Source: a virus (lineage: Duplodnaviria; Caudoviricetes). Taken from it: DNA of 46,630 bases. Where the stretch lies: IMG/VR virus record IMGVR_UViG_3300016659_000028, positions 1 to 46,630 of that record; one strand, written 5' to 3'. The notes beneath the pieces are model-generated. The model made no database searches and was not told the origin of the DNA. It saw nothing but the letters and a program-made list of their open reading frames with translations. Shown here piece by piece: positions 2,199 through 30,881 of this stretch (position 1 is the stretch's first letter; each line of letters begins with the position of its first letter). The translations under genes and the position numbers were made by a program.

Positions 2199-2201
2199 CC
2201 C

Positions 2202-2762
2202 ATGGCTGTTGCGTTTTCTGCGTCTGGCACTCCCACTGCGGGCGGTGTGCAGACCACCTATTCTCTGGTTCATGATGCCTTCCTTGAAGGCCAACTGGCT
2301 GATTCCCGCCCCAAAGTCATTGATTCCTACGTCAATGAAACCTCTGGCGTTGTGGCTTTCGGCAACCTGATGGTTTGGAACAGTGGCAGCACTGTTGCTG
2401 ACTCTGCCCGTACCATTTCTGGCGTTAGTGGCACTGTCGTTGGCGTGAACATTCTCACCTACGTTGATGAGACTGCTCGTGATGCCAACAATCGCCCTGG
2501 CGCCAAAGATCGTCAACTGATGAACGTTCTGCGTCGTGGCGCTTGCGTGGTGTACGTCCATGGTGCAGTAGATCCGTCTACTCCCGTGCGCGTCATCCAC
2601 GCTGCTTCTGGCGTGCAGTATGCCGGTCAATTCTCGGCATCTGCCGTTAGTGGCCGTACTGCCCTGCTGTCCAACGCTGCCTACCTGTCTCGGACCACTG
2701 GCAGTGGCTTGGCTGTTGTTGACCTGAACGGTCCCAACTTCACCCTTACCGCTAACGCCTGA
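2202..2762 (+). CDS. capsid decoration/cement protein
   Basis: 186 aa, rich in small residues and predicted beta strands; sits between the maturation protein and the major capsid gene. Confidence 0.75.
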   Translation: MAVAFSASGTPTAGGVQTTYSLVHDAFLEGQLADSRPKVIDSYVNETSGVVAFGNLMVWNSGSTVADSARTISGVSGTVVGVNILTYVDETARDANNRPGAKDRQLMNVLRRGACVVYVHGAVDPSTPVRVIHAASGVQYAGQFSASAVSGRTALLSNAAYLSRTTGSGLAVVDLNGPNFTLTANA

Positions 2763-2769
2763 GGAAACC

Positions 2770-3684
2770 ATGTCTGATTTTCGTATGGATGATGCGGGAC
2801 TGTTCCTCCAGCGCCAACTGGAGTACATTCGCCCGCAAGTGTTTGAGACGGCCTATGCCGACATCAAATATCCCACGATCCTGCCTGTCACCAGTGAGGC
2901 TGGCCCTGGCGCCCAGCAATTCACCTATCGGGTGATGGATAGCACCGGCAAGTTCGACTTCATTGCCGACAATGCTGACGATCTGCCGCGTGCTGACGTG
3001 AGCCAAGTGGAAAAGTCCATCTACTTCCGCTCCATTGCTGGCTCTTTTGGCTACACCGTGCAGGAACTGCGTGCTGCTCAAATGGCCAATGTGGCTCTTG
3101 AGTCGCGTCGTGGTACCGCTACCCGTCGTGCCTATGAGGAGAAAGTGGAAGACATTGCGATGTTTGGTGATACCACTGTCAACCTCACTGGATTCTTCAA
3201 TCATCCTGGTGTTGACATCGTGACTGCTGACAAGTGGTTTGACACTGCCAGTATCACCACTGCTGAAATGCTGGAACTGCTGAACTATGGCTCCACTGCC
3301 ATTGTCAATGCTTCCAACATGAAAGAGCAGCCCGACACTCTGCTCATGCCGTGGACTGACTATCAAAAAGTTTCGTCCACTCGCAACAGTGATTCCAGTG
3401 ACCTGACCGTTCTGGAATACTTCATGCGGACCAATCCCTACATCCGCAACATTGAGCCCATCCTGCAACTGGACAGCAGCAAGACTACGGGCAAGCTCAA
3501 CACTCGCCGGATGGTGTTCTACAAGCGCGATCCCGAGAAGCTCCAACTGCACATTCCGCAGCCTCTGGAGTTCTTCCCTCCGCAACAGCGCAATCTGCAG
3601 TTCATTGTCCCCGCTCATGCTCGCGTGGGTGGTGTGGCACTGTACTACCAGAAGAGCGTGATCTACGTGCAACGTAGCGCCTGA
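2770..3684 (+). CDS. major capsid protein (DUF2184/encapsulin-like HK97 fold)
   Basis: FL.RQLEYI.PQV.E..YAD, DDLPR.DV, FGY..QELRAA and GFFNHP motifs; GAGG ribosome-binding site upstream; synteny. Confidence 0.9.
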   Translation: MSDFRMDDAGLFLQRQLEYIRPQVFETAYADIKYPTILPVTSEAGPGAQQFTYRVMDSTGKFDFIADNADDLPRADVSQVEKSIYFRSIAGSFGYTVQELRAAQMANVALESRRGTATRRAYEEKVEDIAMFGDTTVNLTGFFNHPGVDIVTADKWFDTASITTAEMLELLNYGSTAIVNASNMKEQPDTLLMPWTDYQKVSSTRNSDSSDLTVLEYFMRTNPYIRNIEPILQLDSSKTTGKLNTRRMVFYKRDPEKLQLHIPQPLEFFPPQQRNLQFIVPAHARVGGVALYYQKSVIYVQRSA

Positions 3685-3731
3685 TTCATGCAAGGGGCGT
3701 TAAGCTAATTGGTGACTGTTTCTCCAAAACA

Positions 3732-4118
3732 ATGCTGATTGCCTATCGCCCCGAGCTTGAAAATCCTCCCCGCGAAGGTGGCTTTGGTGTCATTGTTGAT
3801 CAAGGACTGGTACAACTGGCCCCTGGTCTTAACAAAGATGTTCCTGAACAAGTGTGGCACGCGGCCCGTAATAACACAGAAGTCAAACGATTGATGCGGA
3901 TTGGGGCTATCGAAGAACTGGTAGAACAGGAAACCATCCAGGAAACCCCCAGTGACCTGAATGTTCTTTCCAATCTGCCGCAAAACGAAGCCCTGCGGAC
4001 CATTGAACTAATCCATGATGCAGAACTTCTGCTGGAATGGAAAAAGCGCGAAGGTCGTGTCAGGGTGCGTAATGCCATTGTTCGCCGTCGTACTGCCATT
4101 GCTGAAGGACGTGCCTAA
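3732..4118 (+). CDS. hypothetical head-completion/packaging accessory protein
   Basis: 128 aa immediately after the capsid gene; TAATG-coupled to the next gene. Confidence 0.6.
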   Translation: MLIAYRPELENPPREGGFGVIVDQGLVQLAPGLNKDVPEQVWHAARNNTEVKRLMRIGAIEELVEQETIQETPSDLNVLSNLPQNEALRTIELIHDAELLLEWKKREGRVRVRNAIVRRRTAIAEGRA

Positions 4119-4423
4119 TGGTCACTTACTCCGGGTTCTTGGAGCGGTTTCCTGAGTTCATTCCCCATCCATCGGGAATTGTTCTTGGAGCCATTGACGA
4201 AGCCTCAGCAGATGTAGACGAAGGTGTGTTTGGCTCTCAGTCAGACCGTGCCATCAAGCATCTTGCAGCCCATATCATTGCCCTACAACTGGTCCAAATG
4301 GGAGCCCAAATCGGCGCCACTGATGGAAAAGTCTATGGCAAGGGGCTAGAGGCCACTCAATACGGTCAAGAGTATCTACGGATGCTCAATAGTTGTTCTT
4401 CCACCATTGGTTTTGTTGTGTGA
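4118..4423 (+). CDS. head-tail adaptor (DUF4054-like)
   Basis: F..RFPEF, LAAH and T.YGQEY..M motifs. Confidence 0.8.
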   Translation: MVTYSGFLERFPEFIPHPSGIVLGAIDEASADVDEGVFGSQSDRAIKHLAAHIIALQLVQMGAQIGATDGKVYGKGLEATQYGQEYLRMLNSCSSTIGFVV

Positions 4424-4427
4424 GAGG

Positions 4428-4814
4428 ATGAACGGACTGTCGCCACTGGCAAACGCAACCCTAATTTGGGAAGTAGCTAGTGGCTATGCCTTGGATCCTT
4501 TCACTCAAAACTATCGCCCGGTTTCCAGTGGAGTGGTGTACTACGCCACTCTCAAGCAAAAGAACAATCCACGGTATGACTACCTGTTAGGGGCTGATCA
4601 TACTGCTGTGTATATGGAAGGGCGCTTGACTGGTCCATTGGCACTTTCGGGAGTTAGTGCTGGTGCATCAGCCAAAGCAACAATCAATGGGCGGGAAGGA
4701 CGATTTGAACTACTGCCAAACGAACATCTTGTTGAACACTACTGGCAGTTTCTAGGACAACCAATCAGGGGAGTGTTTAGACTGATTGGTAAAGGAAGCG
4801 TCTTGAACGCTTAA
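4428..4814 (+). CDS. putative head closure/stopper protein
   Basis: Size and position between the adaptor and the tail tube gene; function inferred from synteny only. Confidence 0.55.
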   Translation: MNGLSPLANATLIWEVASGYALDPFTQNYRPVSSGVVYYATLKQKNNPRYDYLLGADHTAVYMEGRLTGPLALSGVSAGASAKATINGREGRFELLPNEHLVEHYWQFLGQPIRGVFRLIGKGSVLNA

Positions 4815-4844
4815 CCATTTTCTTCCCCCTTTGTTTTTAAGACA

Positions 4845-5423
4845 ATGCTCTTCCATCCGACTGAACTGGTTAAGAGCCAAGACGTTATCCTGCGTGTTGG
4901 CTCCATCACTGGCACTGCCCGTCCTACCATCACTCAATCTGGCGCCACTTTCACCGTTAGTGGCGCTCCCACTCTCTACACGCTCCAGGCTGCTACCACT
5001 GCCTCCATTGCTTTCAATGATGGCAACACCGAGTTCTACCTTCTTGGCGGCGGTGGTTTCTCTGATAGCGTCATTGTTACTGCTGGCCTGACTGTTTCTG
5101 TCACTTCCTACTTCCAGAAGGATGTTGACGGCGCCACGTTCCTGCCCAATAGCTTTGATGAAGCCTTCCAAGTCATCACCACTGCTCGGTATGACAAGAA
5201 TGCCGAAGTGTACTTTGAGATGAATAAGGAACTTGGCGCTTCTGGTACCACGTTCTACTATGACCGAGTGGCTGGCATGTCGCGTGTGATGAACTACAAC
5301 GAAAGCTATCCTGCGGACAACTTGGTCGAGGTGACTTTTGATCTGGTGAGCCGTGCCCGTTATGGCATCCACCAATCTGCCACTAGCTCTGGCAGCATCA
5401 TTCCGATTGCTCCCAACTCCTGA
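4845..5423 (+). CDS. major tail (tube) protein
   Basis: 192 aa, Thr/Gly-rich; C-terminal NESYPADNLVEVTFDLVS typical of tube proteins; followed by an intrinsic terminator. Confidence 0.8.
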   Translation: MLFHPTELVKSQDVILRVGSITGTARPTITQSGATFTVSGAPTLYTLQAATTASIAFNDGNTEFYLLGGGGFSDSVIVTAGLTVSVTSYFQKDVDGATFLPNSFDEAFQVITTARYDKNAEVYFEMNKELGASGTTFYYDRVAGMSRVMNYNESYPADNLVEVTFDLVSRARYGIHQSATSSGSIIPIAPNS

Positions 5424-5448
5424 TAGTCCTTTCCATCGTTCCTTTGTT

Positions 5449-5479
5449 AGCCTCCCCATAGCGGGAGGCTTTTTATTTT
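5449..5479 (+). terminator. rho-independent terminator after the tail tube gene
   Basis: AGCCTCCC-catagc-GGGAGGCT stem-loop followed by TTTTATTTT. Confidence 0.85.
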
Positions 5480-6103: not shown

Positions 6104-6108
6104 TTTCC

Positions 6109-7540: not shown

Positions 7541-7542
7541 TT

Positions 7543-17491: not shown

Positions 17492-17524
17492 GCTTGTTAC
17501 AATCAGCATTGATAGCGAAAGATT

Positions 17525-17929
17525 ATGCCTCCTCTCTACGGTCGTGATGCAAATGGCAATGATGCCTATATCAATGCGGCCGGGAGTGGCACTGCAGGGT
17601 CGCCGTATTCCACAGTCCATGACACTGTAGCCTTTGGGCTACTGAGCGCTCAAGTTGATGGCGCGGCCAGTGCAGACGTGGTGGCGGCCGTGAGCGGCTA
17701 CAAGGTGAGGGTGTTGGGGCTGGCCCTAACGGCTGATGCGCCATGCTCCCTGCGGTTTCAAACGGGCGCTAGTGGCAATCTGACGCCACGGTTACGGGTG
17801 CCTTCTGGTAATACCGTGACAATGGGCAACGATCTGGGTTTGTTTGATACCACGGCGGGAGACAAGCTGAACGTGGTGCTAAGTGGCACTGCTAATTACG
17901 GCGTTCTTTGCACCTATCGCTTGGTTTGA
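17525..17929 (+). CDS. putative virion structural protein
   Basis: 134 aa, Gly/Ala/Ser-rich beta protein; first gene of the accessory virion block, with its own TACAAT box. Confidence 0.65.
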   Translation: MPPLYGRDANGNDAYINAAGSGTAGSPYSTVHDTVAFGLLSAQVDGAASADVVAAVSGYKVRVLGLALTADAPCSLRFQTGASGNLTPRLRVPSGNTVTMGNDLGLFDTTAGDKLNVVLSGTANYGVLCTYRLV

Positions 17930-17931
17930 TT

Positions 17932-18636
17932 ATGGCCACTTTCCTGCCATTGCGTGACATTCCGGAAATTGACATCACGTTGTTTCAGCGTGACTACTTT
18001 GATGGCATTGGCTTTGTACTGCAAGACGACAATGGACTGCCCATTGACCTGACTAGCGCCACGATTTGTGCGTCAATTTACCAGACCACGGCATCTGGTA
18101 CAAGTGCTATCGTCACGTCATTTAACGTGCAGAAGGAGGAGCCATTCACGAATGGAGCACTAAACCTTTGGCTTTCGTCTGCTCAAACGCAAGCCGTGTG
18201 GACGGCCTATGAAGGCTATACCACGGCAGATTATCACTTGTTCGTTCCATCGGCTTACGCTAATGAGCAAAGTACAATGGAGCAAACCAATTTGACTTGG
18301 GACTTGCGTGTTGAATTGCCAGAGAAAGTGGCAGACCTTTTGGCAGTGGCTAGTGGAGTATTCACTGCTCAGTCCGCTCCGCGCATTGGCTCCACTGATC
18401 GCCTTGCTTTTAGTGGCACCACATCCTCTGGTCTGAACTGCAACTTCTCTACAGCCAGCCCGTTGTATTCTGGTGCCACCAGCATCAGTCAAGTTTCGCC
18501 CTATCGCTTTACCATTGCCTCTCTTTCTGGCACCACGAATAGTGCACTGGGAGGAGCCTTGTATAAGCTCAAGCAAGACACGGTTATAGTGGGAAAAGTA
18601 GTGGTCGCCCAGACCGTTTCTAACTGTTTTGCATAG
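17932..18636 (+). CDS. putative baseplate/fibre adaptor protein (BppU-N-like)
   Basis: ITLFQRD...LQDDNGLPIDLT.ATI.A.I...L.LS.AQT...WDL pattern of Ig-like adaptor domains. Confidence 0.55.
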   Translation: MATFLPLRDIPEIDITLFQRDYFDGIGFVLQDDNGLPIDLTSATICASIYQTTASGTSAIVTSFNVQKEEPFTNGALNLWLSSAQTQAVWTAYEGYTTADYHLFVPSAYANEQSTMEQTNLTWDLRVELPEKVADLLAVASGVFTAQSAPRIGSTDRLAFSGTTSSGLNCNFSTASPLYSGATSISQVSPYRFTIASLSGTTNSALGGALYKLKQDTVIVGKVVVAQTVSNCFA

Positions 18637-18638
18637 CC

Positions 18639-20375
18639 ATGGCTGATTTAAAGGAAGGAATTAGCGTTGTCACAGTAGGACGGACGACGCCTATTCCTCC
18701 AGGGCCTCAGCCTGCCGCTAAAAGCCTGCCAGTGGTATTGGCCACGGATACGGAAGCCGTGCCAGTGCGTGTGGCAAACCAGCAAATCACAGAAGTTTCG
18801 CTGAGCCTACTGGGTATTCCCCGTTCGGAAGTGGCACTTGGCATTTTTGCTGATGTTACCACTTATGACATCAATCAAAACGAATGGCAGAGCCGAGGTG
18901 GGCTTGGCACCATCACTAATGCAGGCACCACCACGCATGTTGCTGCTGAAAGTGCAGCGAAAGTCGCTTGTAGTTCTGCCACCACTGCGCGGAATCAACT
19001 GCTGAGCAGCAAGCGCTTTTTCCGTTATCAGCCTGGTCGTGTAAGTAGCGCCACGTTTGGCGTAAGGATGACCATTAGTGCTGATGGTGGTGACATCAAA
19101 AAATGGGGAGCATTTGACAGCAACGATGGCTATTACTTTGAGGTTCAAGGTGGTTCGCAGACTGGCACTGACAAAGAAACCAACTTTTACGTGGTGAGGC
19201 GCACAAGCGCCTTTGCATCTTATTCCACGCTGTCTCCCAATACTGCCGCTGGAGAGATTGGCACGATTGGCAGCAGTCTAGTCATTAAGCGTGATGGCCT
19301 CACCTATGTTCATGCAGGGCTCTATGACGAAAGTCTGCGAGTGGCTGGTGGAGGTGGCACTGCTATTGAAACTGGTTCGGCATTGTCCTTCTCAGTGCCT
19401 GCCGATTATCGCTACACCTATGAATACCGGGTGCCGCGTAAGTATTTCTCCTCTGACCGCATGGACGGTCTCACCAGCACTCAATACTATGCCGATGAAG
19501 TGCCCGGCAAGTCATCGTTTGGCGTAACCTTTGGCGGTACGGCCAGTGCTCCCATTCCCACTTTCACCAATGGTGATGTAGTGGAAGATGAAGATGGTAA
19601 CGTAGTGGCCGACGAATCACTCTGGGATTTGAACTTCTCACGAGTGACAATGTATAAGATTGAATACTCGTGGTACGGGGCTGTTGGTGCTAAGTTCTTG
19701 GCCTATGTGCCAGACAAGGATGATCCGTCTCAAGCGCGATGGGTGGCCATTCACCACCTTCGCGTCAGCAATCAAATCATCACTCCCAGTCTTGGCAATC
19801 CCACGCTGCCCCTGAGCTATTACGTTCAGAAGCAAGGCAGTGCCAATGAAGTGGCATTGTTCAAGTATGGGGCAAGCTATTACATTGATGGCGGTGACAA
19901 AGGCACTATCGTTGCCCGCTCCATTGCCAATTCTGCTGATCGTGCTGTCACCACGGCAGGCGAAGCGTTGATTGCCTTGCAAGTAAAGAACACCATCAAC
20001 TCTATTCGCAATCGGATGCAAGTGTATCCCACGCGATTGAGCGTAGGAGTTAACGGTCGGGCAGTGGTATCTCTAATCAAAAACCCAACACTTGTCTCCG
20101 GCACCCCCACGTTCACCAGCGCCAATGCTCTGAGCCCCATCAATACGTTCATTGGCACCAGCGTTCCAACAGTTAGTGGCGGGACAACGGTTGCGACGTT
20201 CTATGCAGGCGATGGAGGAAACGAATACGATCTGTCGCCATACTTTGCGTTCAACAAAGACTACCTGTCTTTCCCATTGGCAGCCACTTCTGGCGACACG
20301 CTTTATGTTTTCGTCCGTGGTGCTGCGGCTACCATTAGTGGCAGTGCTGCTATCACCTGGGAAGAGCAAGTGTGA
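18639..20375 (+). CDS. virion structural protein (RYQPG family), paralogue 1
   Basis: SKRFFRYQPGR, GYYF, MYKIEYSWYGAVG and YGASYYIDGGD motifs; ends in ITWEEQ. Confidence 0.7.
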   Translation: MADLKEGISVVTVGRTTPIPPGPQPAAKSLPVVLATDTEAVPVRVANQQITEVSLSLLGIPRSEVALGIFADVTTYDINQNEWQSRGGLGTITNAGTTTHVAAESAAKVACSSATTARNQLLSSKRFFRYQPGRVSSATFGVRMTISADGGDIKKWGAFDSNDGYYFEVQGGSQTGTDKETNFYVVRRTSAFASYSTLSPNTAAGEIGTIGSSLVIKRDGLTYVHAGLYDESLRVAGGGGTAIETGSALSFSVPADYRYTYEYRVPRKYFSSDRMDGLTSTQYYADEVPGKSSFGVTFGGTASAPIPTFTNGDVVEDEDGNVVADESLWDLNFSRVTMYKIEYSWYGAVGAKFLAYVPDKDDPSQARWVAIHHLRVSNQIITPSLGNPTLPLSYYVQKQGSANEVALFKYGASYYIDGGDKGTIVARSIANSADRAVTTAGEALIALQVKNTINSIRNRMQVYPTRLSVGVNGRAVVSLIKNPTLVSGTPTFTSANALSPINTFIGTSVPTVSGGTTVATFYAGDGGNEYDLSPYFAFNKDYLSFPLAATSGDTLYVFVRGAAATISGSAAITWEEQV

Positions 20376-22846
20376 CTGTTTCGGGGTACTATCAAATTGC
20401 GGAGGATCAGCAGCCAGCAGGCTATGAGCTTGTTGACTCTGAGCTGATTGATTTCGTCACTGGCGATACGCTCATTGACCTGGGCGATGGGCTACCGCTA
20501 ACTGGTGACACGCAAGAAACGGTGATTAGTGCTTCTGGAGCATTTCCAGTGGCCTTGATGAATAGTGCTGCCATTCCAGTGGAAGTGGTGAACCAATCAG
20601 CCAGTGAAGTTGAGATTGGCTTGCTGGGTATTCCTCGGGCTGAAACTGCACTTGGTCTCTTGGGACTGGTCAACACCTATGGCTTGGACTTGACTTTATG
20701 GGGGTTAGCGCCAGGCGGTTTGTCCTTATACAAGTATTTCCGAGACCCAAACACCTGGACGTTTCAAGTAAAAGATGGTGTGCAGTATGGCTGGTTTGCA
20801 AGGCATTTGCCTAAAGAAGCGGCCCTGCAAGTTTATGCACTGCCGCCTGAAAAGAGCTACGAATACTTGGAAGATGATGGCACCGGAAGGTATCCCGGAG
20901 GCTACACCGATGGTGTGATCACAAACTACATCGAAAGTAAGCGTACGTTCAGGTATCAGCCTGGCCGGATTACTGGCGTGACTATGGGCGTGAGAATGTC
21001 CACTGATAGCAATTGGCCGGGGGAGTCTATTTCGTGGGGCTGTCGCAATGCCTACGGGGATGGCTATTACTTTAGGCTGGACAAAGGCACCGACTTGTAC
21101 GTGGTCAGGGAATCACCGGGGCTGCCAACACTTGTCGTACCAAGGGAGCAATGGAATGGCGATCCTGTCACCATTGAAGCTGGTGATACTGGCTGGAACT
21201 TGGACGTGTCAAAGGTGACAATGTTCAAGATTGAGTTTGGCTGGTATGGCGCCATTGGAGCGACATTATTCGCCTATGTTCCGATTGGTCACGACAATGC
21301 ACGATGGGTGAAGTTGCATTCGTTTAGGGCAGAAAATCAAAACACTGTTCCAAGTCTGCGGAGTCCTTATCTGCGCCTCTTTATTCAAGCAACACAAACT
21401 GCAGGCGCAATCACTCCGGCATTCATCAACTTGTATGGCAGTAGCGTTTACATTGATGGTGGCGACGATGGTACGCTACAAACTGCAAGTGCTCCCACTC
21501 CAGCGGCAGTAGCCATTAGCAATCAGCCTCGTTCCATTATTGGCTTGCTGCCTGCGACTAGGATCAACAATATCACGAATCAAAAGACTCTATTCCCCAC
21601 TTCTCTATCATTTTCAGCAGATGCGGCAACAAAACTTGACTTGATGGTGGTCAATCCTGGAATTGGAAATAGCGAAAGTTATGGTTATGGCCATGGTACA
21701 ACAATCAGTCGGCCTGCCGCAAGTGGTTTTGCAGTGGTGCGGACTAATGCTACAACGCTAACTGGCGTCATTCCTACAGGGCTTCCGTTCACCCCAGCCA
21801 CTTCCCATGGCTATTTGTATTCTGGCTATCCAGTGAAAGTAGTGGCAAGCGGCCTGAACAACTACTTTGCCACCACGTTAAATGCCACGACCATTGGCAC
21901 TAATCGTAATGTGCCCGCTGGCATTTCTTCTGTGGCGCTGGCTGCCTTTAATGCCTATGCCATTAGCAGCAATGCTGAAATCGTAAGTGGCGATGGAGTG
22001 GACTTAGGGGGCTCTAGGCAATACACTGGCAAGCTCTATTTCACACGACCGAGCGGCAATACTGGCGGCATCTATTGGCGGCTTGGGCTATGGCTTAATG
22101 CCAGCGGCACTTACCTGCCTGGAGTGTCTACCGTCTCGTGGCTTGCTACGGCTTTCCCTGGTATTGACTACACGCTCTCTGGTGAAGAGATTGGAGAAGT
22201 GACATTGCCGCCAGAAACTTATCGGCAAGTTGGTTTTACGATGGTCGAAAGTGGAGGACTTGCGACTGTTCGCGGACTACTGTTTCGACAGTTGGCTGCT
22301 TCACCTCCTCCAGCAACAATCACTGGTTCGCCATTCCCGATTAAGGTTGTGGCAGAACTTTACCCTGGTGCCACTTTAAGCGACGTGGTGTTGTCCATGG
22401 CTCCCATGCCGTCTGGCTATTTGGAGCTTAGTGGTGAAGACTTTGCTAATGCCTATGATCGCTTTGCCATTGGACCGGGATCAGGGCGCACCGTAGCAAT
22501 TTCAGGCTGGACGACAAGTGGTGACATTACGCAATCCACTATTGGCGGAACCAATTATGTTGCCAATAAGTTTGAGACACCACTGAATCTCCCCCTGACT
22601 GGTGCCCTCGTGGACCTACAAGGGCGCCGCACGCCTTATAGCCTCTCCTCCATCGCATCATTCTTCGCCGCCAGTGGAGAGAGCCGTACCGTGCCACTCA
22701 CGCCTTATTTTGGGCCAGACAAAACCTTCTTAGCTGGTGGTGCTGATACCGCTTACGGCCTTGGGGCATTGTTTGTCGTGGCTTCTACGCGAGTGTCGGG
22801 CCAGACTGGTAGTGTGCTTGCATCAATCAACTGGAGCGAACAATGA
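20372..22846 (+). CDS. virion structural protein (RYQPG family), paralogue 2
   Basis: SKRTFRYQPGR, MFKIEFGWYGAIG and YGSSVYIDGGD motifs; ends in INWSEQ; collinear with the upstream paralogue. Confidence 0.7.
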   Translation: MTVSGYYQIAEDQQPAGYELVDSELIDFVTGDTLIDLGDGLPLTGDTQETVISASGAFPVALMNSAAIPVEVVNQSASEVEIGLLGIPRAETALGLLGLVNTYGLDLTLWGLAPGGLSLYKYFRDPNTWTFQVKDGVQYGWFARHLPKEAALQVYALPPEKSYEYLEDDGTGRYPGGYTDGVITNYIESKRTFRYQPGRITGVTMGVRMSTDSNWPGESISWGCRNAYGDGYYFRLDKGTDLYVVRESPGLPTLVVPREQWNGDPVTIEAGDTGWNLDVSKVTMFKIEFGWYGAIGATLFAYVPIGHDNARWVKLHSFRAENQNTVPSLRSPYLRLFIQATQTAGAITPAFINLYGSSVYIDGGDDGTLQTASAPTPAAVAISNQPRSIIGLLPATRINNITNQKTLFPTSLSFSADAATKLDLMVVNPGIGNSESYGYGHGTTISRPAASGFAVVRTNATTLTGVIPTGLPFTPATSHGYLYSGYPVKVVASGLNNYFATTLNATTIGTNRNVPAGISSVALAAFNAYAISSNAEIVSGDGVDLGGSRQYTGKLYFTRPSGNTGGIYWRLGLWLNASGTYLPGVSTVSWLATAFPGIDYTLSGEEIGEVTLPPETYRQVGFTMVESGGLATVRGLLFRQLAASPPPATITGSPFPIKVVAELYPGATLSDVVLSMAPMPSGYLELSGEDFANAYDRFAIGPGSGRTVAISGWTTSGDITQSTIGGTNYVANKFETPLNLPLTGALVDLQGRRTPYSLSSIASFFAASGESRTVPLTPYFGPDKTFLAGGADTAYGLGALFVVASTRVSGQTGSVLASINWSEQ

Positions 22847-24048
22847 CAACTCCTGGTCTGGTTAGAGCTAATAATTTGTCTGACCTCACAAATGTTAGTG
22901 AGGCATGGGACAATCTTGCTGATGAACTTGACTATTCGTACAATGCGCAACGCGCTAATTATGTGAACAACTCTGCCGTGATTCGGCAGGACGAGAAGAG
23001 CAATGTGGTGGTGACGCAAGCTAGCGGGATTCCATTGAGCTATGGCGAACAGTATGTTTATAAGATCACAGAACAGGCTGGCACTGCCATTCCTTTCCCA
23101 TTCGGTTACTTGCGTGCTGCTACCACAAGTGCAAACTATGCAAACCTTGATTGGCGCCTAAATGTAAGCAATGGGCCGGTAGTGGGATCAATTTTGCTGA
23201 AGGCAGGCACTCATAGCTTTGTTGGCATGGCATTGCGGCCTGGCAATGGTGGCAACTTCTTTAAGGACACCAATTACCCCTTCTTTGGCATTGACTTACT
23301 AACAGGCAATCGACAAGATTGTTTTGGCAACGGCAAACCCTATGAAATCATGGGAGCCGTAGAAGAAGATGATGGGTGGTGGCGAGTGTCAATGAGCAGC
23401 ATTTGCCAGCAAGCGTATGGCACTGCTTCTATTGATCTAATCTTTTTACAGCAAGGCAACTTGGGAGTGGTGCCTAATGCTTCTTCTGTTGATGGCAGCA
23501 AGTTCTTCTATGCGGCATTACCGCAAATTGAAACTGGTCACGAACCATCGCCAATCGTTATCACGGTTAGCGAGCAGCCAGTATCGCGGGCGACTGTTGC
23601 AACATCGGCTAGCGGCTTGAGTTTTGGCGGGGAGGACATTAGTGCCATTCGTGGTTTAGCGAACATTGGCACAACTAATCTCTTGCTGGCATCATCTCTA
23701 TTGAGAGCAGCGCAACCACGCATTAGCCAACTTCAAGCCTCTGGTCAGGCAGTGGTGACCTCTGGTGCTAATTGCTTGCCCATTGTCTCTCCATCGTCAA
23801 CTGGCACTTATGTCGTTAGCGGTCTTGTTGCTAGTGGCTATAGCGTTAGAGGCAATGCAGTCGGCACTGTTTCTGGTAGTCCAATTTCCGGTACAACAGC
23901 CACTGTGCCCTTGGAGATTGATGGTCTAATTCCTCAAGCTTGGAAGGCTGATGCTGCTTTCGCTTCAGGCAGTCTCACGTCACCAAGTCTTGCAATTCCT
24001 GTTGAGTATGATGGTTTCTACGTGGCCATAGTGGTGGGGCAAAGCTAA
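22843..24048 (+). CDS. fibre/spike protein with an inserted carbohydrate-binding-like domain
   Basis: N-terminal GLVRANNLSDL anchor; central DGWWRVS...PQIETG module. Confidence 0.65.
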   Translation: MTTPGLVRANNLSDLTNVSEAWDNLADELDYSYNAQRANYVNNSAVIRQDEKSNVVVTQASGIPLSYGEQYVYKITEQAGTAIPFPFGYLRAATTSANYANLDWRLNVSNGPVVGSILLKAGTHSFVGMALRPGNGGNFFKDTNYPFFGIDLLTGNRQDCFGNGKPYEIMGAVEEDDGWWRVSMSSICQQAYGTASIDLIFLQQGNLGVVPNASSVDGSKFFYAALPQIETGHEPSPIVITVSEQPVSRATVATSASGLSFGGEDISAIRGLANIGTTNLLLASSLLRAAQPRISQLQASGQAVVTSGANCLPIVSPSSTGTYVVSGLVASGYSVRGNAVGTVSGSPISGTTATVPLEIDGLIPQAWKADAAFASGSLTSPSLAIPVEYDGFYVAIVVGQS

Positions 24049-25394
24049 TGGCAAGGCGCTATGGACTCAGAGCTAGTTCTAATCTGGCAGACGTTGCAGA
24101 CAATACGCGCTGTGTTGAAAACTTAGGACTTCGCATTGCTGATTTCGTTACCATTGCTGGCATCAGTGCTACTGGCGTCAGTGCTGCAGACTTCACGGCA
24201 CTAGAAGGGCTTCGTGCGCCACTGGAAGCTCAGATCACGGGCCTTGCCCCCATTGCTGCGGCTTCCCTCTCAGGGCTTGCTCTAAAAGCCTTGCGGACGG
24301 GAGATAGCATCAGTGGCTCGCTCATCGTCAGCGGCATTGTCTCTGGCGATCGGGCCTTCATTCGTACCACTGGTAGTGGGGCTATTTATAGTGCTGCATC
24401 GGGGAGTTTCTTTTCGCCCATCAGTGGCAACACGTTCTCGGGTGGCGGCTTCTACCGTTCTGGCCCAACGCGCATTAGTGGCCTCAACACTGGTAGCGGC
24501 TTAGGCAACTACACTGGCCCCACTTTTCCGTGGCAGTCACACTACGAGGACTACAAAGTTTATCAGCGCATCAGCAATAGCTCCGACACGCTTTTTGACA
24601 TTCGCACCAAATTGCCTCCGCCGACAGTTTTTAGTGGTTGTCAACTGTGGCTTGATGCGGAGAAAAGTTCATTCTCTTACTTTGCCGCCAATCGCATTAG
24701 CCTGTGGAGCACTCTAATTAGTGGTGGGCCAAGCGCAGCGCAAACCACCAGCGGCAATGGTCCTTACTACCTTGTGTCTGGCATTGTTGATAGCGGTATT
24801 GTCAAGCCTGGCATCAACTTCACTGGTACTGACTTTTTCTCTCTTGGCTCCATTGGCGGCTACTTCCCTGATGCTGCTACGGTCGTCATCATGGCGCAAG
24901 TCGAAGATGCCGACTACTGCTTGCTGACCAACAATTCAAGCAATGCTGGACGCTGGCGGACAAGTTCAGGGAATGGCACTTGGCCATTATTTTGTGCTTC
25001 GCCCATTGACCGCTTTCCTACCACCATGCCTGCCAATGGTACGTTTGCTTTTAGTGTCAGGGCATCACAAAGCTATGGACTGGAGCTGAGACGCAATGGA
25101 AGGCGACTGGACTACCTAGATCCATCGGGCTTTGCCTATCAGGCTGGCGGCCAATACCTGCTTGCCACTGCTCCTGGTGGTGCCGGACGCTTTGGAGGGA
25201 AAGTATTTGCCGTAGTGGCATTTAACCGAATACTGCCCGATAGAGAACTGCGTACCGTAGAGGAGTATTGCCTATGGCGCTATAATTCAGTCTATAACCC
25301 TGATGCCACGCAAACTTTACAGTTGGAGGATGGTTCTTTCCTGCAACTTGAAACTGCATCTGGCGCCACTGATTTTGCCATAGATTTGGGCTAA
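24048..25394 (+). CDS. fibre protein with a C-terminal LamG/ConA-like domain
   Basis: N-terminal GLRASSNLADV; QLWLDA...W...F.G...FNR.L...E...VE.Y...Y lectin-fold pattern. Confidence 0.7.
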   Translation: MARRYGLRASSNLADVADNTRCVENLGLRIADFVTIAGISATGVSAADFTALEGLRAPLEAQITGLAPIAAASLSGLALKALRTGDSISGSLIVSGIVSGDRAFIRTTGSGAIYSAASGSFFSPISGNTFSGGGFYRSGPTRISGLNTGSGLGNYTGPTFPWQSHYEDYKVYQRISNSSDTLFDIRTKLPPPTVFSGCQLWLDAEKSSFSYFAANRISLWSTLISGGPSAAQTTSGNGPYYLVSGIVDSGIVKPGINFTGTDFFSLGSIGGYFPDAATVVIMAQVEDADYCLLTNNSSNAGRWRTSSGNGTWPLFCASPIDRFPTTMPANGTFAFSVRASQSYGLELRRNGRRLDYLDPSGFAYQAGGQYLLATAPGGAGRFGGKVFAVVAFNRILPDRELRTVEEYCLWRYNSVYNPDATQTLQLEDGSFLQLETASGATDFAIDLG

Positions 25395-25783
25395 TGACAA
25401 AACTGAGCCAACTCGCAATCATTTCTGGCTCGGCATTAGCCGACAATGATCTGTTCTATGTCAATGATGTAAGCGATGCGTCATTACCTAGCAAGGCTCT
25501 GACCGTTAGTGGTCTTAAGCAGGCGATTGCCTTGGCTTTTGTTGGCACTGATCCTGAGGACATCCCTCTTAATCAATATCTTGGCGACCTTGCATTTCTT
25601 GACACCTTCCAGCCTACAATCGTTAGCGGTCTTACCGTAAGCTCTGGTGTAGCCTCCAGTGGTGTGCGTACTGCCACATTCTCTGCCACTAATGCTCCAG
25701 GAGCTTCTAATGTAGTCGTCAAGCAATGGCTGCCTGTAGTAGTTACTGGCGTCACTCATTATTTGCCATTGTTTGCTCCATAA
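25394..25783 (+). CDS. small fibre-associated structural protein
   Basis: KLSQL...DLFYV.DVS and GTDPEDIPLNQYLGDLAF motifs seen in phage fibre proteins; translationally coupled. Confidence 0.6.
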   Translation: MTKLSQLAIISGSALADNDLFYVNDVSDASLPSKALTVSGLKQAIALAFVGTDPEDIPLNQYLGDLAFLDTFQPTIVSGLTVSSGVASSGVRTATFSATNAPGASNVVVKQWLPVVVTGVTHYLPLFAP

Positions 25784-27087
25784 TGCCTGCCGGTTATCCT
25801 ACGGTTAGGCCACTGCAAATGCTTGATTTCAGGAATCAAGCAAAGGTGGATTCGCGTTTTAACTTTACGCGCTCCACCATTGGCTCTTATGTCGATGCCT
25901 CTGGCAGCCAGCGGATTGCAGCAGCACATGAACCACGACCGTCATACGATCCCCTAACTGGAGCCTATCAAGGCTTGCTGATGGAAAGTCCTAGCACTAA
26001 CTTGCTGCCATGGAGCAATAACATTACAGCCTCAGGCTGGTATTATGCACCCCAGAATGGCGCCGTTAGCTCAGGTTATACAGGTATTGGCGGGCTGCCC
26101 ACGGCCTATCGTATTGCTGAAGGTAATGTACCCGGATCATGGTTTGTTGCCAATTCCATTGCCATTAGTGGTGGTACAGATTATGCAGTATCGGCTTTTG
26201 TAAAAAGCGATGGAGTGAATCGTGGATATTTGCAGTTTGTGGGACTTGATGCAAGCGGAGTGGTCAAAGGCAATGCTGTGGTCTACTTTGACTTACAACG
26301 GCACCTTGTATTCCCGGAAAACTATGGCATAAATACAAGGACTGCTTTGATTGAAAAGCGCAAGAATGGCTGGTTTCGCGTGGGAGCACTTGGCCCTATG
26401 GCGTCAGGAGCAGTGCTGGGAGTGCTGAATCTAGCCTTGCAGCGTGATGATGGCAGCCTTTTCTATCAAGGCGCTGGTCAAGGTTTGCTAACAGATGGAT
26501 TTCAAGTGGAAGCCAATGGAACCAATGCCTATGTGTCTTCGTTTATTCCCACTTCAGGAGTAGCCGCAACTCGGGCGTCGGACTTCATTGACAGCAAAGA
26601 TGGAGAGTTTGGCAACTGGTACGTCAATAGTGGAGTCACTCTTCAGCAAGAGCAGATGGTACTAAACGATGATTTTTACCAATCTGGGCGCAGCATCTTC
26701 TACGTCACTAGCACATCTGATCCTAGTCGCATTACTTTACGGCTTGGCGCGACCGACAATGGAATGAGGCTGACTGCAGGAGTAGTTGACTCAACAAACA
26801 CCGGAGTAAGCGTAGGATCTTTTGTTGTTGGAAACGGACTGAGCCCATGGGAAAATCCTGCATCTGGAACAGGATCTTCAAGGCCAGTCATTAGCAATTC
26901 TGCTGCTAATTTTTCTGCGTCTGGATTTTCATTGGTTACTAGCGGTCAAGTATTCACAACTTCCGGCTTTTTGCCATCAGGAATTGGCAGGGCTATTATT
27001 ACCCTCAATGCAGGCAAAATGATTTTACGTCGCGCTACCATTTATCCATTGCTCACCAATACTGAGGCACTGCTAATAACGCAATGA
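25783..27087 (+). CDS. spike/fibre receptor-binding protein (lectin-like)
   Basis: FTRS..GSY.D..G...PR..YDP.TG...GLLME...TNLL, NGWFR and S+IPT....TRASD motifs. Confidence 0.7.
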   Translation: MPAGYPTVRPLQMLDFRNQAKVDSRFNFTRSTIGSYVDASGSQRIAAAHEPRPSYDPLTGAYQGLLMESPSTNLLPWSNNITASGWYYAPQNGAVSSGYTGIGGLPTAYRIAEGNVPGSWFVANSIAISGGTDYAVSAFVKSDGVNRGYLQFVGLDASGVVKGNAVVYFDLQRHLVFPENYGINTRTALIEKRKNGWFRVGALGPMASGAVLGVLNLALQRDDGSLFYQGAGQGLLTDGFQVEANGTNAYVSSFIPTSGVAATRASDFIDSKDGEFGNWYVNSGVTLQQEQMVLNDDFYQSGRSIFYVTSTSDPSRITLRLGATDNGMRLTAGVVDSTNTGVSVGSFVVGNGLSPWENPASGTGSSRPVISNSAANFSASGFSLVTSGQVFTTSGFLPSGIGRAIITLNAGKMILRRATIYPLLTNTEALLITQ

Positions 27088-28850
27088 CCAAAGGACTCGT
27101 ACGGGCCAATAATTTTTCTGACTTGGCAGACAAGGATCAAGCCGTCGTCAATCTTGGCCTGTCTTCTGCTGATTATGCGGCATTAAAAGGACTTTATGCC
27201 ACAGCAGGTATTGACTTTGCCGTGATTGGCGAAATTGGTAATAGCCAAGGCAATTATCAAGCACAACTTGATGGCTTGACTACAACTTTTTCGGGCGTTG
27301 CATTGTCTGGATATGTGAATCGCTCTGGCAATAGCAGCATTATTGGCAACTGGACTCATGGGGGAGGGTACATTTCTGTCAATAACGGACTGCCAAGTGG
27401 CTATCCGGCCTCAACGGATAGTCTATTTTCTCTGTCCATTGAATCTGGAGAGGCAGTTATTGTTGCTTCTGGGCTTGTTGCAAGTGGACTATCGTATAAT
27501 GGAGTGAGACAATCAAACTCAACAGTTACACAAGCGTCTTTACGAAACGGCTTTAGTCCATTGCATCTGATTCCTCTACAAGTTGGTGGTCAAGCCTACT
27601 TTGCACAGGCTGGTGAAAGTCCAAGTTTTTATATTGCGCCCGGCAGGACTGGCCATGCCCTTGACCTGATCACCGGCACCGTGCTGGGTGGCGGGACGGT
27701 GAACTGTGCGTCGCCAGCGTGGGAGGTGGGGCCTGATGGGATTTTGTACCAGCCGGCGGCAAATACTCCGGTGATCGGATATGACCCGGTGACGCTGCGG
27801 CCGAGGGGGCTGCGGGTGTGGGGGGCGGTGACGAATCTGTGGCTTTATACGAGCGCGATTGGAACGGCGCCATGGTCGTCAGTTCGATCTACTTCAACCC
27901 TGAACGCTGCAATCTCTCCTGATGGAACACTGACGGCCACCCGACTGAATGAAGATACAAGTGCAAGCACAAGTCATCTTGTAAGACAAGATCCCCTCGT
28001 ATCAAGTGGGACCACCTATTGTTGGTCAGTGTTTGCCAAGGCGAGCACAAGAAGCGAGCTGATAATGGCTTTTGGCGTAGACTCTGGAGCCTTTGCGGGG
28101 GAGTACGCCACATTCAACCTGTCTACGGGCCAGATCACGGCGTCGGAAGCAACCACCACAGCAAGAATCAGCACCTTCCCGAATGGCTGGTATCGCTGTT
28201 CTGTAACTGCTACTGCATTAGCATCCACTTATGCAGTTCTGCGTCATCACATTGCAGTTAATGGATCTGCAGCGTACACAGGCGACGGAACCAGTAGCCT
28301 TTTGCTATGGGGCGCTCAACTCCAAACCGGCTCTACGGTAGGCCCCTACGTCCCTACCACCACCACCACCGCCAGCAGCACGGCGGACGTGATTTCGATC
28401 GCGGGGGCGGATGCTGCAAGGATCATTAACACCGCTCAAGGCACTCTGTACGTTGACTTTGCCACTGGCTCAGCAGTGCCGGCAAGCACCTATCCGACGA
28501 TGTTGCAGTTGCAAGGGGCAAATCGGCAGAACGAAGTACAGATCTATGCAAGCACTGGCATTGTTGCGTATTTGGTTAAAACCGGCAATGTCGTACAGGC
28601 CGAGGCGAACCTATCGGCTGCGACACAGAACGGAGTCAAGTCGGCATTTAGGTATGCCGAAAACAATTCCAGATCTTATGTCAATGGATCGCCGCTATTC
28701 CTGGATACTGTTTGCACAATGCCAGCGACGGATCGAATCTTTATCGGCAGCAGCAATGGAAGTGAATACTTCCTGAACGGCTACATCCGCGAGGCTGCAA
28801 TCCTGCGCACTGGCCGTGCTGATGCCAACCTCCAGGCGATGACCCAATGA
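27084..28850 (+). CDS. mosaic spike/fibre receptor-binding protein
   Basis: GLVRANNFSDL anchor fused to a module homologous to 25783..27087 (YDP.T...GL...TNL, NGWYR, WGAQLQ, YVPT, QGTLYV, L.AMTQ). Confidence 0.75.
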   Translation: MTKGLVRANNFSDLADKDQAVVNLGLSSADYAALKGLYATAGIDFAVIGEIGNSQGNYQAQLDGLTTTFSGVALSGYVNRSGNSSIIGNWTHGGGYISVNNGLPSGYPASTDSLFSLSIESGEAVIVASGLVASGLSYNGVRQSNSTVTQASLRNGFSPLHLIPLQVGGQAYFAQAGESPSFYIAPGRTGHALDLITGTVLGGGTVNCASPAWEVGPDGILYQPAANTPVIGYDPVTLRPRGLRVWGAVTNLWLYTSAIGTAPWSSVRSTSTLNAAISPDGTLTATRLNEDTSASTSHLVRQDPLVSSGTTYCWSVFAKASTRSELIMAFGVDSGAFAGEYATFNLSTGQITASEATTTARISTFPNGWYRCSVTATALASTYAVLRHHIAVNGSAAYTGDGTSSLLLWGAQLQTGSTVGPYVPTTTTTASSTADVISIAGADAARIINTAQGTLYVDFATGSAVPASTYPTMLQLQGANRQNEVQIYASTGIVAYLVKTGNVVQAEANLSAATQNGVKSAFRYAENNSRSYVNGSPLFLDTVCTMPATDRIFIGSSNGSEYFLNGYIREAAILRTGRADANLQAMTQ

Positions 28851-29209
28851 GCCATTATTTCACCCTCCGTTTCGACTCTGAGCAAGAGGCCCTCGCCACC
28901 GCCGAGGCCCTGCGGCTGTTGCCGCCCGAGGAGGAGGAGATGCGCGATCTGTTGGTGATCTCGCAGCCGGGACTGTTCGGCCAGGCGCAGCTCATCACTG
29001 ACGTTGTGGTGCCCGGCACCTACGACCCCGAGACTGGCGAGGAGCTGACGCCGCCCGTCCCAGTGCCCGGCGCATTCGTCAACGTCATCCTGAACCGCGT
29101 TATCCTGCCCTCGGCCCTCCGCCCCTACCGCGTGCCCTACGGCAGCGGCGGCGTCTGCTGGGCTGGCACTGAACCGGAGCCCAACGCATGGCCTCCGAGC
29201 CTGTCTTAG
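28847..29209 (+). CDS. fibre-associated assembly/partner protein
   Basis: LRF.SE.EA...GTYDPETGEELTPP...G.FVN pattern; GC-rich; coupled to the fibre gene. Confidence 0.65.
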   Translation: MSHYFTLRFDSEQEALATAEALRLLPPEEEEMRDLLVISQPGLFGQAQLITDVVVPGTYDPETGEELTPPVPVPGAFVNVILNRVILPSALRPYRVPYGSGGVCWAGTEPEPNAWPPSLS

Positions 29210-29237
29210 CTAACATAAAAGAAACAGGGCTTGCACC

Positions 29238-29753
29238 ATGCTTCGCATTAGAAACGGGGAACAACTAGAGCGTCAGCTAATGACCAGCGATGGTCAAGAG
29301 GCAAGGCTTGCCTTCAATCGCCCCGGCACTACTTTTACTTATTCTGGTAATGTCGTTGTTGGTTCCACGGCATCTGGTGTATTTGAAGTGGTGACTAGCG
29401 GCGAAACCAACATGAGCTTGTTCGTCACTAATGCTCGCGTCAAGATGGCGCGAAGTGGTGTACCGTCTGGTTATTCGGCAATGCGTGTGCATTGGTTTAA
29501 TGAAGCACCATCAGGGATTAGCGATGGAGCGGCCCTAGTGGTGAACAGTGGTGATAGTGCCAAGTACAAAGGCTATAGCGACCTCCTTGGAACAGTGGAC
29601 CTAGGGCAAACCATTGTCACTCAAGGCACTTTGCTGAACAAGCAAATCCTGCTTAAGAGCGCTTCAGTGTGGCTGGCTCTAACTCCTAGCACTGTGTTTG
29701 CTGCAGCCTCTGGCACACCTTATCAAGTTGAACTTGACTATTTTGTGGTTTGA
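29238..29753 (+). CDS. putative virion structural protein
   Basis: 171 aa beta-rich protein with its own TAACAT box and 8 Ser-Gly pairs. Confidence 0.6.
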   Translation: MLRIRNGEQLERQLMTSDGQEARLAFNRPGTTFTYSGNVVVGSTASGVFEVVTSGETNMSLFVTNARVKMARSGVPSGYSAMRVHWFNEAPSGISDGAALVVNSGDSAKYKGYSDLLGTVDLGQTIVTQGTLLNKQILLKSASVWLALTPSTVFAAASGTPYQVELDYFVV

Positions 29754-30031
29754 TGGAAGATCAATACTGGCGGTTTGCCACTGAGAAAGAAGCTATTAGC
29801 GCCTTAATTGCGGCCAAGATCATTGCCAGTGGTAGTACTGTCGCCACTATTGGAGCTTTGGACCTCGTGGGGACTATTCGCTACGGCGGAAGGTTTGACT
29901 ACGAGGCTCGTCGCTTGCTTTCCCCTCCATTGGCCTATTCTGGCTACCATGTGAATTATCGTGGACCAGTTGTAGCAAGTCTCGCTAAGTATCGCGTATT
30001 TCCCTCTAGTCCATCGCGGAAGTTTGCATGA
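29750..30031 (+). CDS. fibre-associated assembly/partner protein, paralogue of 28847..29209
   Basis: RF.TE.EA...G.FD.E...L.PP...GYHVN...P.SP.RKFA pattern. Confidence 0.6.
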   Translation: MMEDQYWRFATEKEAISALIAAKIIASGSTVATIGALDLVGTIRYGGRFDYEARRLLSPPLAYSGYHVNYRGPVVASLAKYRVFPSSPSRKFA

Positions 30032-30369
30032 TGGAACAAGCCTGTTTTCCAATTACGATCACTCAAGGTGCGACGTTTGATCTGGAAGTGGCGTGGCAAG
30101 ATTCCAATGGAGTAGGAATCAATATGTCAGGCTGGACGCTAAAGTCTGACCTTTACAATCGCCTTGGCACGCAAAAGCTCGCTTCTTTTTCTTTGCCATG
30201 GTCTAATCAGGCTAGTGGTATTTTCAGGCTCGTAATGCCAGCCAGTGTTACGAGTGGCATCACAGAGAATGGTCAATACGACATTTTTGCCACTAGCCCA
30301 TCAGGGCAAGTTTATTGCCTTTTGGAAGGCCCTGCTTCTCTCAATCCGAGTTTTTCGTTTCGGCCATGA
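30028..30369 (+). CDS. Ig-like adaptor protein (BppU-N-like)
   Basis: ITQGATF...W.D..G..I..SG.T...YD+.......LEG pattern. Confidence 0.65.
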   Translation: MMEQACFPITITQGATFDLEVAWQDSNGVGINMSGWTLKSDLYNRLGTQKLASFSLPWSNQASGIFRLVMPASVTSGITENGQYDIFATSPSGQVYCLLEGPASLNPSFSFRP

Positions 30370-30881
30370 CTGTTGTTGTTAGTTATACGGAAAACAGCGT
30401 AGTATTGCGCGAACCTGGACCTGCTGGTCCACAGGGTATTCCTGGCTCCAGCATTCGGTATCAAGGACAAATTGCTCGCTCTACTATTGGCACTGTCTCT
30501 GGCATTGTGCAGAGTTCATACACGCTAGTGGCCATTAGTGGCACGTTTGATTCCTCCATTACCAGTGGAGTAGTGATTGGCTCTGGTTTTGCCTTGCGCA
30601 ATAACACGGGACAAACACTAGTATTTGCAGCCAATGTTGCGACTGAAGCTAGTGCTGGCAATCAAGAACATCTTGGGCTGATGCTAACCAAAAACGGAAC
30701 TGTGGTGTCAGGCAGTGAAGTGAGAGGCCATACTGGCAATTCATCTTCTGCTGTTCCATTGACTATTCCAAGCTATTTCATCAGCCTTAACAATGGCGAC
30801 GAAGTGGGACTAGCAGTGGCAAACTTCTCAGCCAATGCCAATGTTTCTTTAGAGCGCACTCGCCTAACCTTGAGCGTTTAA
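30366..30881 (+). CDS. short collagen-like fibre with a C1q/BclA-like head
   Basis: PGPAGPQGIPG Gly-X-Y stretch followed by a beta domain ending ISLNNGDEVGL.V.N. Confidence 0.65.
   Translation: MTVVVSYTENSVVLREPGPAGPQGIPGSSIRYQGQIARSTIGTVSGIVQSSYTLVAISGTFDSSITSGVVIGSGFALRNNTGQTLVFAANVATEASAGNQEHLGLMLTKNGTVVSGSEVRGHTGNSSSAVPLTIPSYFISLNNGDEVGLAVANFSANANVSLERTRLTLSV

Follow-up and report, generated by a model that had tools for sequence, protein, structure and literature searches.

The question raised by this locus is why the Ser-Gly (SG) dipeptide is so common in the structural proteins of a tailed virus, and whether it marks sites at which the virion is modified. The DNA analyzed (IMG/VR record IMGVR_UViG_3300016659_000028, Caudoviricetes, positions 1 to 46,630, hereafter the window) covers 46.6 kb of the ~75-kb genome of a siphovirus related to Synechococcus phage S-CBS4, and a preliminary description of it, made from the sequence alone, had proposed SG as the acceptor of a virion modification such as glycosylation. 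The SG signal is real and specific, and a glycosylation sequon is a plausible explanation for it. The preferred reading, to which a probability of roughly 0.6 is assigned on sequence grounds, is that soluble glycosyltransferases encoded in the phage's own head operon would use [T/V/I/A]-x-S-G as a sequon for O-glycosylation.

Across all 32 genes of the structural block, taken without selection, SG was the top dipeptide (141 observed vs. 78.8 expected, z = 7.0), with Gly-Ser at 76 versus 78.8 and Thr-Gly (TG) at 78 versus 66.5. The accessory genes at positions 17525–30881 carried 108 SG (46.8 expected), the head and core tail genes 33 (32.0 expected), and 23 nonstructural proteins 15 (19.8 expected; this set omits three open reading frames, two of them doubtful and the third encoding a pentapeptide-repeat protein). 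Shuffling of the accessory block within segments of 10–40 residues gave 47–52 SG (maximum 71) against the 108 observed, Ser and Gly spaced at gaps of 2–4 formed 34–43 pairs in the same block, and the 8-residue context was unique at 117 out of 117 SG sites. Local low complexity was rejected as a cause on the basis of these shuffles and contexts. Hexamers coding for SG were distributed 108/7/49 over the frames, and the Ser codons at SG comprised 58 TCN and 50 AGY codons. Because the hexamers are in frame and Ser is encoded by codons of both families, the signal lies at the protein level, and a DNA-level cause was rejected. A generic [S/T]-G enrichment was likewise rejected for the window, where TG is not enriched; TG is enriched in the clade of phage S-EIV1.

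All 15 of the per-protein figures quoted in the preliminary description were reproduced, including the placement of 15 out of 17 SG in the C-terminal half of the protein encoded at 20372, and two of its claims, that composition alone is insufficient (the excess survives composition correction in the unselected block) and that no DNA repeat is involved, are borne out by the counts above. Singly, 10 out of the 12 proteins that it listed reach p < 0.05; the tail tube (p = 0.057) and the protein encoded at 30366 (p = 0.125) do not. Its wider claim, that SG sites were selected over the outer surface of the particle, does not extend to the whole of that surface, as several presumably outer proteins show no excess: the central fibre J (5 vs. 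6.5), the proteins encoded at 18639 (4 vs. 5.4) and 27084 (9 vs. 6.7), and the major capsid protein (0).

The residues around SG are rich in Thr and Val at position -2 and in Ala at position -1, and depleted in Gly at position -2, in Asp nearby (2 vs. 5.5 at -1; 1 vs. 5.5 at both -3 and +3), and in Pro directly after the Gly. The whole excess of the unselected structural block resides in [TVIA]xSG (85 vs. 24.1 expected), with all other SG at 56 versus 54.6; this class was defined on the window itself and the window count is thus partly circular. Asn-Gly and Asp-Gly (NG and DG) turns preceded by [TVIA]x show no enrichment (14 vs. 14.5). The context (A/V/I/T/P/S)-S-G that had been proposed is better written [T/V/I/A]-x-S-G, the SG excess itself being confirmed. 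In alignments of orthologues (identity of at least 30%; cells not independent), Ser was retained before a conserved Gly in 239 out of 332 cells versus 508 out of 912 before other conserved residues, and Thr (52/122) and Ala (48/111) were less retained before Gly than Ser. This selective retention indicates that the Ser of the motif is under selection, as far as can be judged from alignments.

The window shares its gene order with S-CBS4 (74% identity in the capsid protein, 55% in the primase, and 52% in the tail tube, to gp28), and 28 of its called proteins match that phage, a shared and syntenic core that identifies an S-CBS4-like cyanosiphovirus with a picocyanobacterium as the inferred host. 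It aligns to 27.5–74 kb of the 77-kb relative G001, and about 27–30 kb of the genome, including the terminase and portal genes, would lie outside it. Searches of the window with Pfam and PHROGs identified the protease, cement, capsid, tape measure, a lambda-like tail tip, and the accessory tail genes at 17525–30881. The candidate substrates are given below with observed versus expected SG, together with the left end of the window.

1..48, + strand: left window end; the glycosyltransferase cassette lies beyond it, 0.2–4.1 kb upstream (contig L001, 2893–6795)
2202..2762, + strand: capsid cement/decoration protein (Pam3 gp6-like; PF22758), 8 SG vs. 1.9
4407..4814, + strand: putative head-tail joining protein (by gene position), 3 SG vs. 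0.8, all [TVIA]xSG; absent from the list in the preliminary description
4845..5423, + strand: putative tail tube (by gene position), 4 SG vs. 1.6, p = 0.057 alone
17525..17929, + strand: accessory tail protein, homologue of S-CBS4 gp41, 5 SG vs. 1.3 (gp41: 8 vs. 2.0)
17932..18636, + strand: accessory protein (phrog_1084), 6 SG vs. 1.6
20372..22846, + strand: virion structural protein (phrog_1645), 17 SG vs. 7.8, 15 in the C-terminal half
22843..24048, + strand: accessory protein, 9 SG vs. 4.5
24048..25394, + strand: accessory protein, 19 SG vs. 5.9
25394..25783, + strand: accessory protein, 5 SG vs. 1.0, all [TVIA]xSG
25783..27087, + strand: tail protein (phrog_5939), 14 SG vs. 5.5
27084..28850, + strand: tail protein (phrog_5939), 9 SG vs. 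6.7 (not significant), [TVIA]xSG 7 vs. 2.4
29238..29753, + strand: accessory protein from an unnamed, mostly viral family, 8 SG vs. 1.8, all 8 [TVIA]xSG
30028..30369, + strand: LtfC-like protein, 4 SG vs. 1.2
30366..30881, + strand: tail fibre protein (phrog_24754), 5 SG vs. 2.8, all [TVIA]xSG (5 vs. 1.0)

An AlphaFold2 model of the cement protein (predicted local distance difference test score 82) matches the Pam3 cement protein (8hdt_G, E = 2e-9). Of the eight SG serines, seven lie in coil and the eighth in a bridge; coil makes up 62% of the model, however, and secondary structure is not discriminating in this protein (coil for 7/8 SG serines vs. 8/11 other serines).

No glycosyltransferase was found with Pfam or PHROGs among the 58 window proteins, and the enzyme had been expected either elsewhere in the genome or from the host. 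The first of these alternatives agrees with the IMG/VR contig L001, whose positions 7028–14598 equal window positions 1–7571 at 99.987% and which reaches 7 kb further upstream. Between the portal and head protease genes (L001 2893–6795) it encodes a glycosyltransferase of family 4 (GT4; Pfam E = 2e-4, under the curated cut-off, and phrog_2170 E = 1e-44), a GT32-like DXD enzyme (Pfam E = 3e-4, also under the curated cut-off), a DUF4422-like protein (labelled only via a 37% identical homologue), a 2-oxoglutarate-Fe(II) oxygenase, and an S-adenosylmethionine-dependent methyltransferase. By their sequences, the GT4 and GT32-like genes are phage-encoded glycosyltransferase genes a short distance upstream of the window. 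The cassette proteins contain no membrane-like segment (no hydrophobic 19-mer above 1.32), and the GT32-like protein has no match among cultured phages and no significant match in the PDB.

A total of 48 loci (L001–L048) were fetched with the capsid protein, 19 of which span the region from portal to protease. GT4 was present in all 19, a GT32-like gene in 15, GT2 in two, a DUF4422-like gene in 11, a methyltransferase in 16, and the oxygenase in one. Because GT4 is found in every informative locus, its presence or absence is useless as a test within the clade. The distal cassette genes (L001 4119–6795 and relatives) are highly variable among close relatives and include DUF4422-like proteins, the 2-oxoglutarate oxygenase, several methyltransferase types including a C-methyltransferase, and a 435-aa protein without a name. 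This variability suggests that the tailoring of the glycan is diversifying. In an S-CBS4 subclade (L022 and L048) the second glycosyltransferase is GT2 and not GT32-like, and the cement protein carries 6–7 TG and one SG; the other proteins stay SG-rich.

Chlorovirus B736L is the PDB structure closest to the GT4 protein, both by profile (E = 1.5e-29 over 390 positions) and in Foldseek (rank 1 with a template-modelling score of 0.78), indicating a GT-B fold and homology over the full length. The GT4 of S-CBS4 is gp14 (56% identical). About 920 stretches of viral contigs contain matches to the GT4 motif patterns, and the best 80 of these loci are all clade-like in appearance. Similar patterns occur at only eight loci among 185,579 prokaryote species genomes; one of these (L488) clearly belongs to a clade phage, and two further loci, at 57–58%, are probably clade phages. 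The contigs of L488–L490 were binned into metagenome-assembled genomes of Methylacidiphilales and Polynucleobacter, probably by mis-binning. A GT4 tree with 22 rows does not split SG-positive from SG-negative carriers: G037 is placed next to the S-CBS4/S-EIV1 group, and G023/G024 are the neighbours of G042.

The SG excess extends to the relatives of the window and is absent from fold-matched cement proteins. SG ranked first in the post-tape-measure blocks of nine out of 17 clade genomes or fragments (observed/expected ratio, O/E, 1.56–2.07); it ranked second in G006, fourth in S-CBS4 (1.31), and tenth in G008, and was not significant in five truncated blocks. The excess persists in post-tape-measure proteins that have no BLAST match to the window (84 vs. 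59 in G002, 124 vs. 83 in G003, and 85 vs. 52 in G005; 39 vs. 31.5 in the partial block of G007). Fold-matched cement proteins do not share the SG rate of the clade: 21 clade representatives (drawn from 120 out of 253 found) contain 103 SG versus 37.0 expected (O/E 2.78), whereas 39 Pam3/RHEph04-like representatives (from 77 out of 80 loci) contain 34 versus 42.1 (O/E 0.81), although this is in effect a comparison of one clade with another. GT4 was absent from all 33 larger control contigs searched out of the 80, with a positive control of 3/3.

The association was then examined across phage lineages, with genes called by a simple codon model and S/T/G-rich, charge-poor proteins taken as a proxy for appendages. 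The sample outside the clade comprised 13 genomes with GT4, namely 10 out of 20 large non-clade GT4 contigs (mostly picked for completeness) and the phages S-EIV1, TJE1, and Mae-JY09. The controls were 24 hand-picked sets without GT4, partly related and some partial, eight of which were dropped for having <10 expected SG (O/E 0.55–1.65 in the seven with data). SG ranked first in nine out of 13 non-clade GT4 genomes (O/E 1.83–2.50). Together with the S-CBS4 clade these genomes form nine lineages that share 0–5 proteins, and SG ranks first in five of the nine. Among cultured GT4 carriers, the excess is clear in S-EIV1 (2.15, with a single annotated glycosyltransferase in its record) and TJE1 (1.83), and S-CBS4 reaches 1.40. 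The motif also differs between the groups: the median O/E of [TVIA]xSG was 1.45 in controls (maximum 2.10), 3.04 in non-clade GT4 genomes (p = 5e-4 against controls, without phylogenetic correction), and 2.85 in the clade, and values above 2.2, a cut set afterwards just above the control maximum, were found in 0/16 controls, 8/13 non-clade GT4 genomes, and 7/8 clade genomes. The context effect is strong in the G023/G024 lineage ([TVIA]xSG 319 vs. 81, 3.93; other SG 171 vs. 152, 1.13) and the G031/G034 lineage (93 vs. 25, 3.71; other SG 78 vs. 51, 1.53), and the 12 low controls, when pooled, lack it (336 vs. 258, 1.30; other SG 705 vs. 568, 1.24).

Two of the named GT4 phages show further dipeptide biases. 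In the structural block of S-EIV1 (L131), NG (15 vs. 34.5) and DG (16 vs. 35.1) are strongly depleted. Mae-JY09 (L133) carries its GT4 homologue within the head operon (9787–10971), its virion proteins favour the Gly-Thr dipeptide (66 vs. 43.5; also the top dipeptide of its proxy set), and one of its proteins is rich in S-G-T.

A number of observations weigh against a dedicated sequon. Four out of the 13 GT4 carriers do not have SG at rank 1 (G037, 0.98; G042, 1.30, 62% complete; Mae-JY09, 1.46; G022, 1.66), and S-CBS4 itself is weak (SG 85 vs. 60.8, 1.40; [TVIA]xSG 1.62; one SG and six TG in its cement protein). The 16 controls kept show a generic excess (O/E 1.02–1.85, median 1.29), and four of them are high: HTVC010P (1.85), DC31 (1.71), and S-CAM4 (1.46), all with SG at rank 1, and Cr-LKS4 (1.63). 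None of these four matches the GT4 profiles, in a search that covered this GT4 family alone. Within the clade the association amounts to a single event, because GT4 never varies there. The other fold neighbours of GT4, BshA and MshA among them, are GT4 enzymes that act on small molecules, none of five cellular GT4 homologues is flanked within 10 kb by a strongly SG-rich protein, and B736L is uncharacterized in activity and acceptor, the latter possibly being other than capsid, according to the available part of the source (PMC9614988). The mycobacteriophages Che8 and Corndog, considered at the end, show no motif excess ([TVIA]xSG 13 vs. 13.0 and 7 vs. 9.5). A link of SG to glycosyltransferase genes thus stands in that the excess follows the GT4 family across unrelated phages, and falls short in that three controls without GT4 reach 1.6–1.85.

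Because of those three controls, a generic turn preference must explain part of the signal. That it explains the whole, with no modification involved, is unlikely: S/T/G-rich beta-fibre proteins would then simply favour SG as the turn at strand exits, a preference that some aquatic lineages have amplified, and the co-occurring cassette would act on the host surface, DNA, or another target. Such a preference would fit the range of 1.02–1.85 in the 16 controls, the location of the SG sites of the cement model in loops adjoining strands, the depletion of DG in the cements of the clade (3 vs. 16.8), where SG seems to have taken its place, and the T5-like homologue of the 25783 domain, which shares SG at three out of seven aligned sites (homologous domains in four cultured phages without GT4 keep SG at 0, 0, 3, and 2 of 7–8 aligned sites). 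It does not fit the ratio of 0.81 in cements of the same fold, the absence of a context effect in the low controls in contrast to the G023/G024 and G031/G034 lineages, or the lack of NG/DG enrichment in the [TVIA]x context of the window. Less probable still is a true acceptor motif that is served by another initiator, such as the GT32-like or GT2 enzyme or a host cytoplasmic transferase, or that receives a nonsugar (e.g., phospho-type) group. The excess in DC31, HTVC010P, Cr-LKS4, and S-CAM4 without a GT4-family match points in this direction, as does the S-CBS4 subclade in which GT2 stands in for GT32 and the cement shifted from SG to TG, but GT4 is the one cassette gene common to the SG-rich lineages, S-EIV1 reaches 2.15 with its single annotated glycosyltransferase, and no kinase was found among the window proteins with Pfam or PHROGs (~27 kb of the genome lies outside the window). 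An artefact of DNA composition, repeats, or post hoc choice of proteins is very improbable and already largely refuted: palindromes are strongly avoided in the window, T is favoured over C in codons before Gly, and the proteins first listed were picked after their counts had been seen, but the excess persists in the unselected block, is confined to the reading frame, draws on both Ser codon families, and occurs in unique contexts at 117/117 sites.

If [T/V/I/A]-x-S-G is a sequon, the B736L-like GT4 would attach the first sugar to the motif Ser in the host cytoplasm during assembly; GT4 is the suggested initiating enzyme because it is the sole cassette gene present in every lineage examined. 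The second glycosyltransferase, which can be either GT32-like or GT2, would lengthen the glycan, and a methyltransferase or oxygenase would tailor or cap it, so that cement trimers and tail appendages would be coated with glycans at multiple sites. It is speculation that such a coat affects protease resistance, stickiness, or attachment. The broader proposal, that the virus-enriched B736L-related GT4 family consists of protein O-glycosyltransferases reading [T/V/I/A]-x-S-G, and that unrelated aquatic phages of cyanobacteria and of one actinobacterium, having acquired it, independently studded nonhomologous decoration and tail proteins with the motif to build a glycan coat, is put forward more tentatively, at somewhat less than even odds. 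If true, phage virion glycosylation would have a defined sequon located within the protein chain, of which literature searches gave no example, and B736L would have a candidate type of acceptor. Many environmental virions would be glycoproteins, which bears on adsorption, decay, grazing, and the interpretation of virion proteomics, and the soluble enzyme–motif pair could be of use in glyco-engineering. The idea is directly testable because three cultured phages (S-EIV1, TJE1, and S-CBS4) carry the GT4 family.

Other features of the window are recorded here. The pentapeptide-repeat protein (42940–43713, - strand) contains 11 SG that are due to its repeat unit and unrelated to the main finding. 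The endolysin (30878–31975, - strand), a phage lysozyme fused to an M15 peptidase domain, is encoded on the strand opposite to the structural genes. Two tandem related proteins without a family match (37066–38230, - strand) each have an HxD-like motif and are possibly oxygenase-like, as judged by eye, and a small protein (45809–46249, + strand) combines RTX calcium-binding repeats with a serralysin C-terminal-like region. The tail tip (12873–17491) is ordered unlike that of S-CBS4, with a gpM-like gene (16829) after J, apparently encoding two M-like domains, and with gpI and J fused. Palindromic hexamers are strongly avoided over the whole window (observed vs. expected: CAATTG 2 vs. 40, AAGCTT 8 vs. 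44, GAGCTC 0 vs. 26, GAATTC 0 vs. 17). The set avoided in S-CBS4 (CAGCTG, GAGCTC, ACGCGT, and GACGTC) is partly different, an indication that the hosts may differ in their restriction systems. In the structural genes, codons that end in C are strongly avoided ahead of Gly codons (e.g., GAC 7 vs. GAT 44, ACC 7 vs. ACT 51).

Among known systems, proteoglycan xylosylation takes place in the eukaryotic secretory pathway at Ser-Gly sites with acidic flanks. The preliminary description had drawn this analogy, which is not sustained beyond the shared dipeptide: Asp is depleted around the Ser at positions -1, -3, and +3, and the L001 cassette has no xylosyltransferase-type Pfam match. Virion glycosylation has been demonstrated in few phages so far. 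Freeman et al. reportedly described it in Che8 and Corndog in 2023, with the site said to be a C-terminal Ser. In these mycobacteriophages virion proteins are glycosylated by phage-encoded glycosyltransferases, and the reported targets are capsid and tail tube, according to the available parts of the sources (PMC11256854, PMC10877033). Here the capsid protein has no SG and the tube four, and the candidates are numerous internal sites of accessory proteins. Corndog resembles L001 in carrying a methyltransferase and three glycosyltransferase genes between portal and head protease, followed by capsid, but the L001 cassette has no BLAST match to Corndog gp35-38, and the GT4 profile matches neither of the two genomes, so that within these comparisons the enzymes are not recognizably homologous. 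The capsid and tube proteins of Che8 (L496 5051–8422) and Corndog (L497 10548–15132) all end in Gly-Ser or Asp-Ser; the tail tube of the window also ends in Ser and that of S-CBS4 does not.

Like the GT4, B736L/A546L (PDB 3OY2) is soluble and encoded by a virus, and the viruses that carry it modify their own capsid with glycans. The structural identity of the two enzymes is only 21%, and the chlorovirus capsid glycan is N-linked, whereas O-glycosylation is proposed here. In the portions available of the respective sources, B736L binds GDP-mannose best, yet the NY-2A capsid glycan is without mannose (PMC9614988, PMC4691112), and the parts available of four further papers (PMC12494034, PMC8557907, PMC12801897, PMC13419713) contain nothing further on acceptors. 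Literature searches, the scope of which left out most subscription journals and supplements, yielded no account of phage virions with a Ser-Gly sequon. S-CBS4, the closest cultured relative, lacks the GT32-like, DUF4422-like, and oxygenase genes and instead carries GT2 and a methyltransferase. The closest mechanistic analogy, though an analogy only, is to the autotransporter heptosyltransferases. TibC itself does not appear among the three profile matches of GT4, its listed fold matches, or the Pfam matches of the cassette, but in TibC and AAH, as far as the available part of the source describes them, a dedicated partner enzyme modifies many sites on a beta-rich substrate (PMC4358343).

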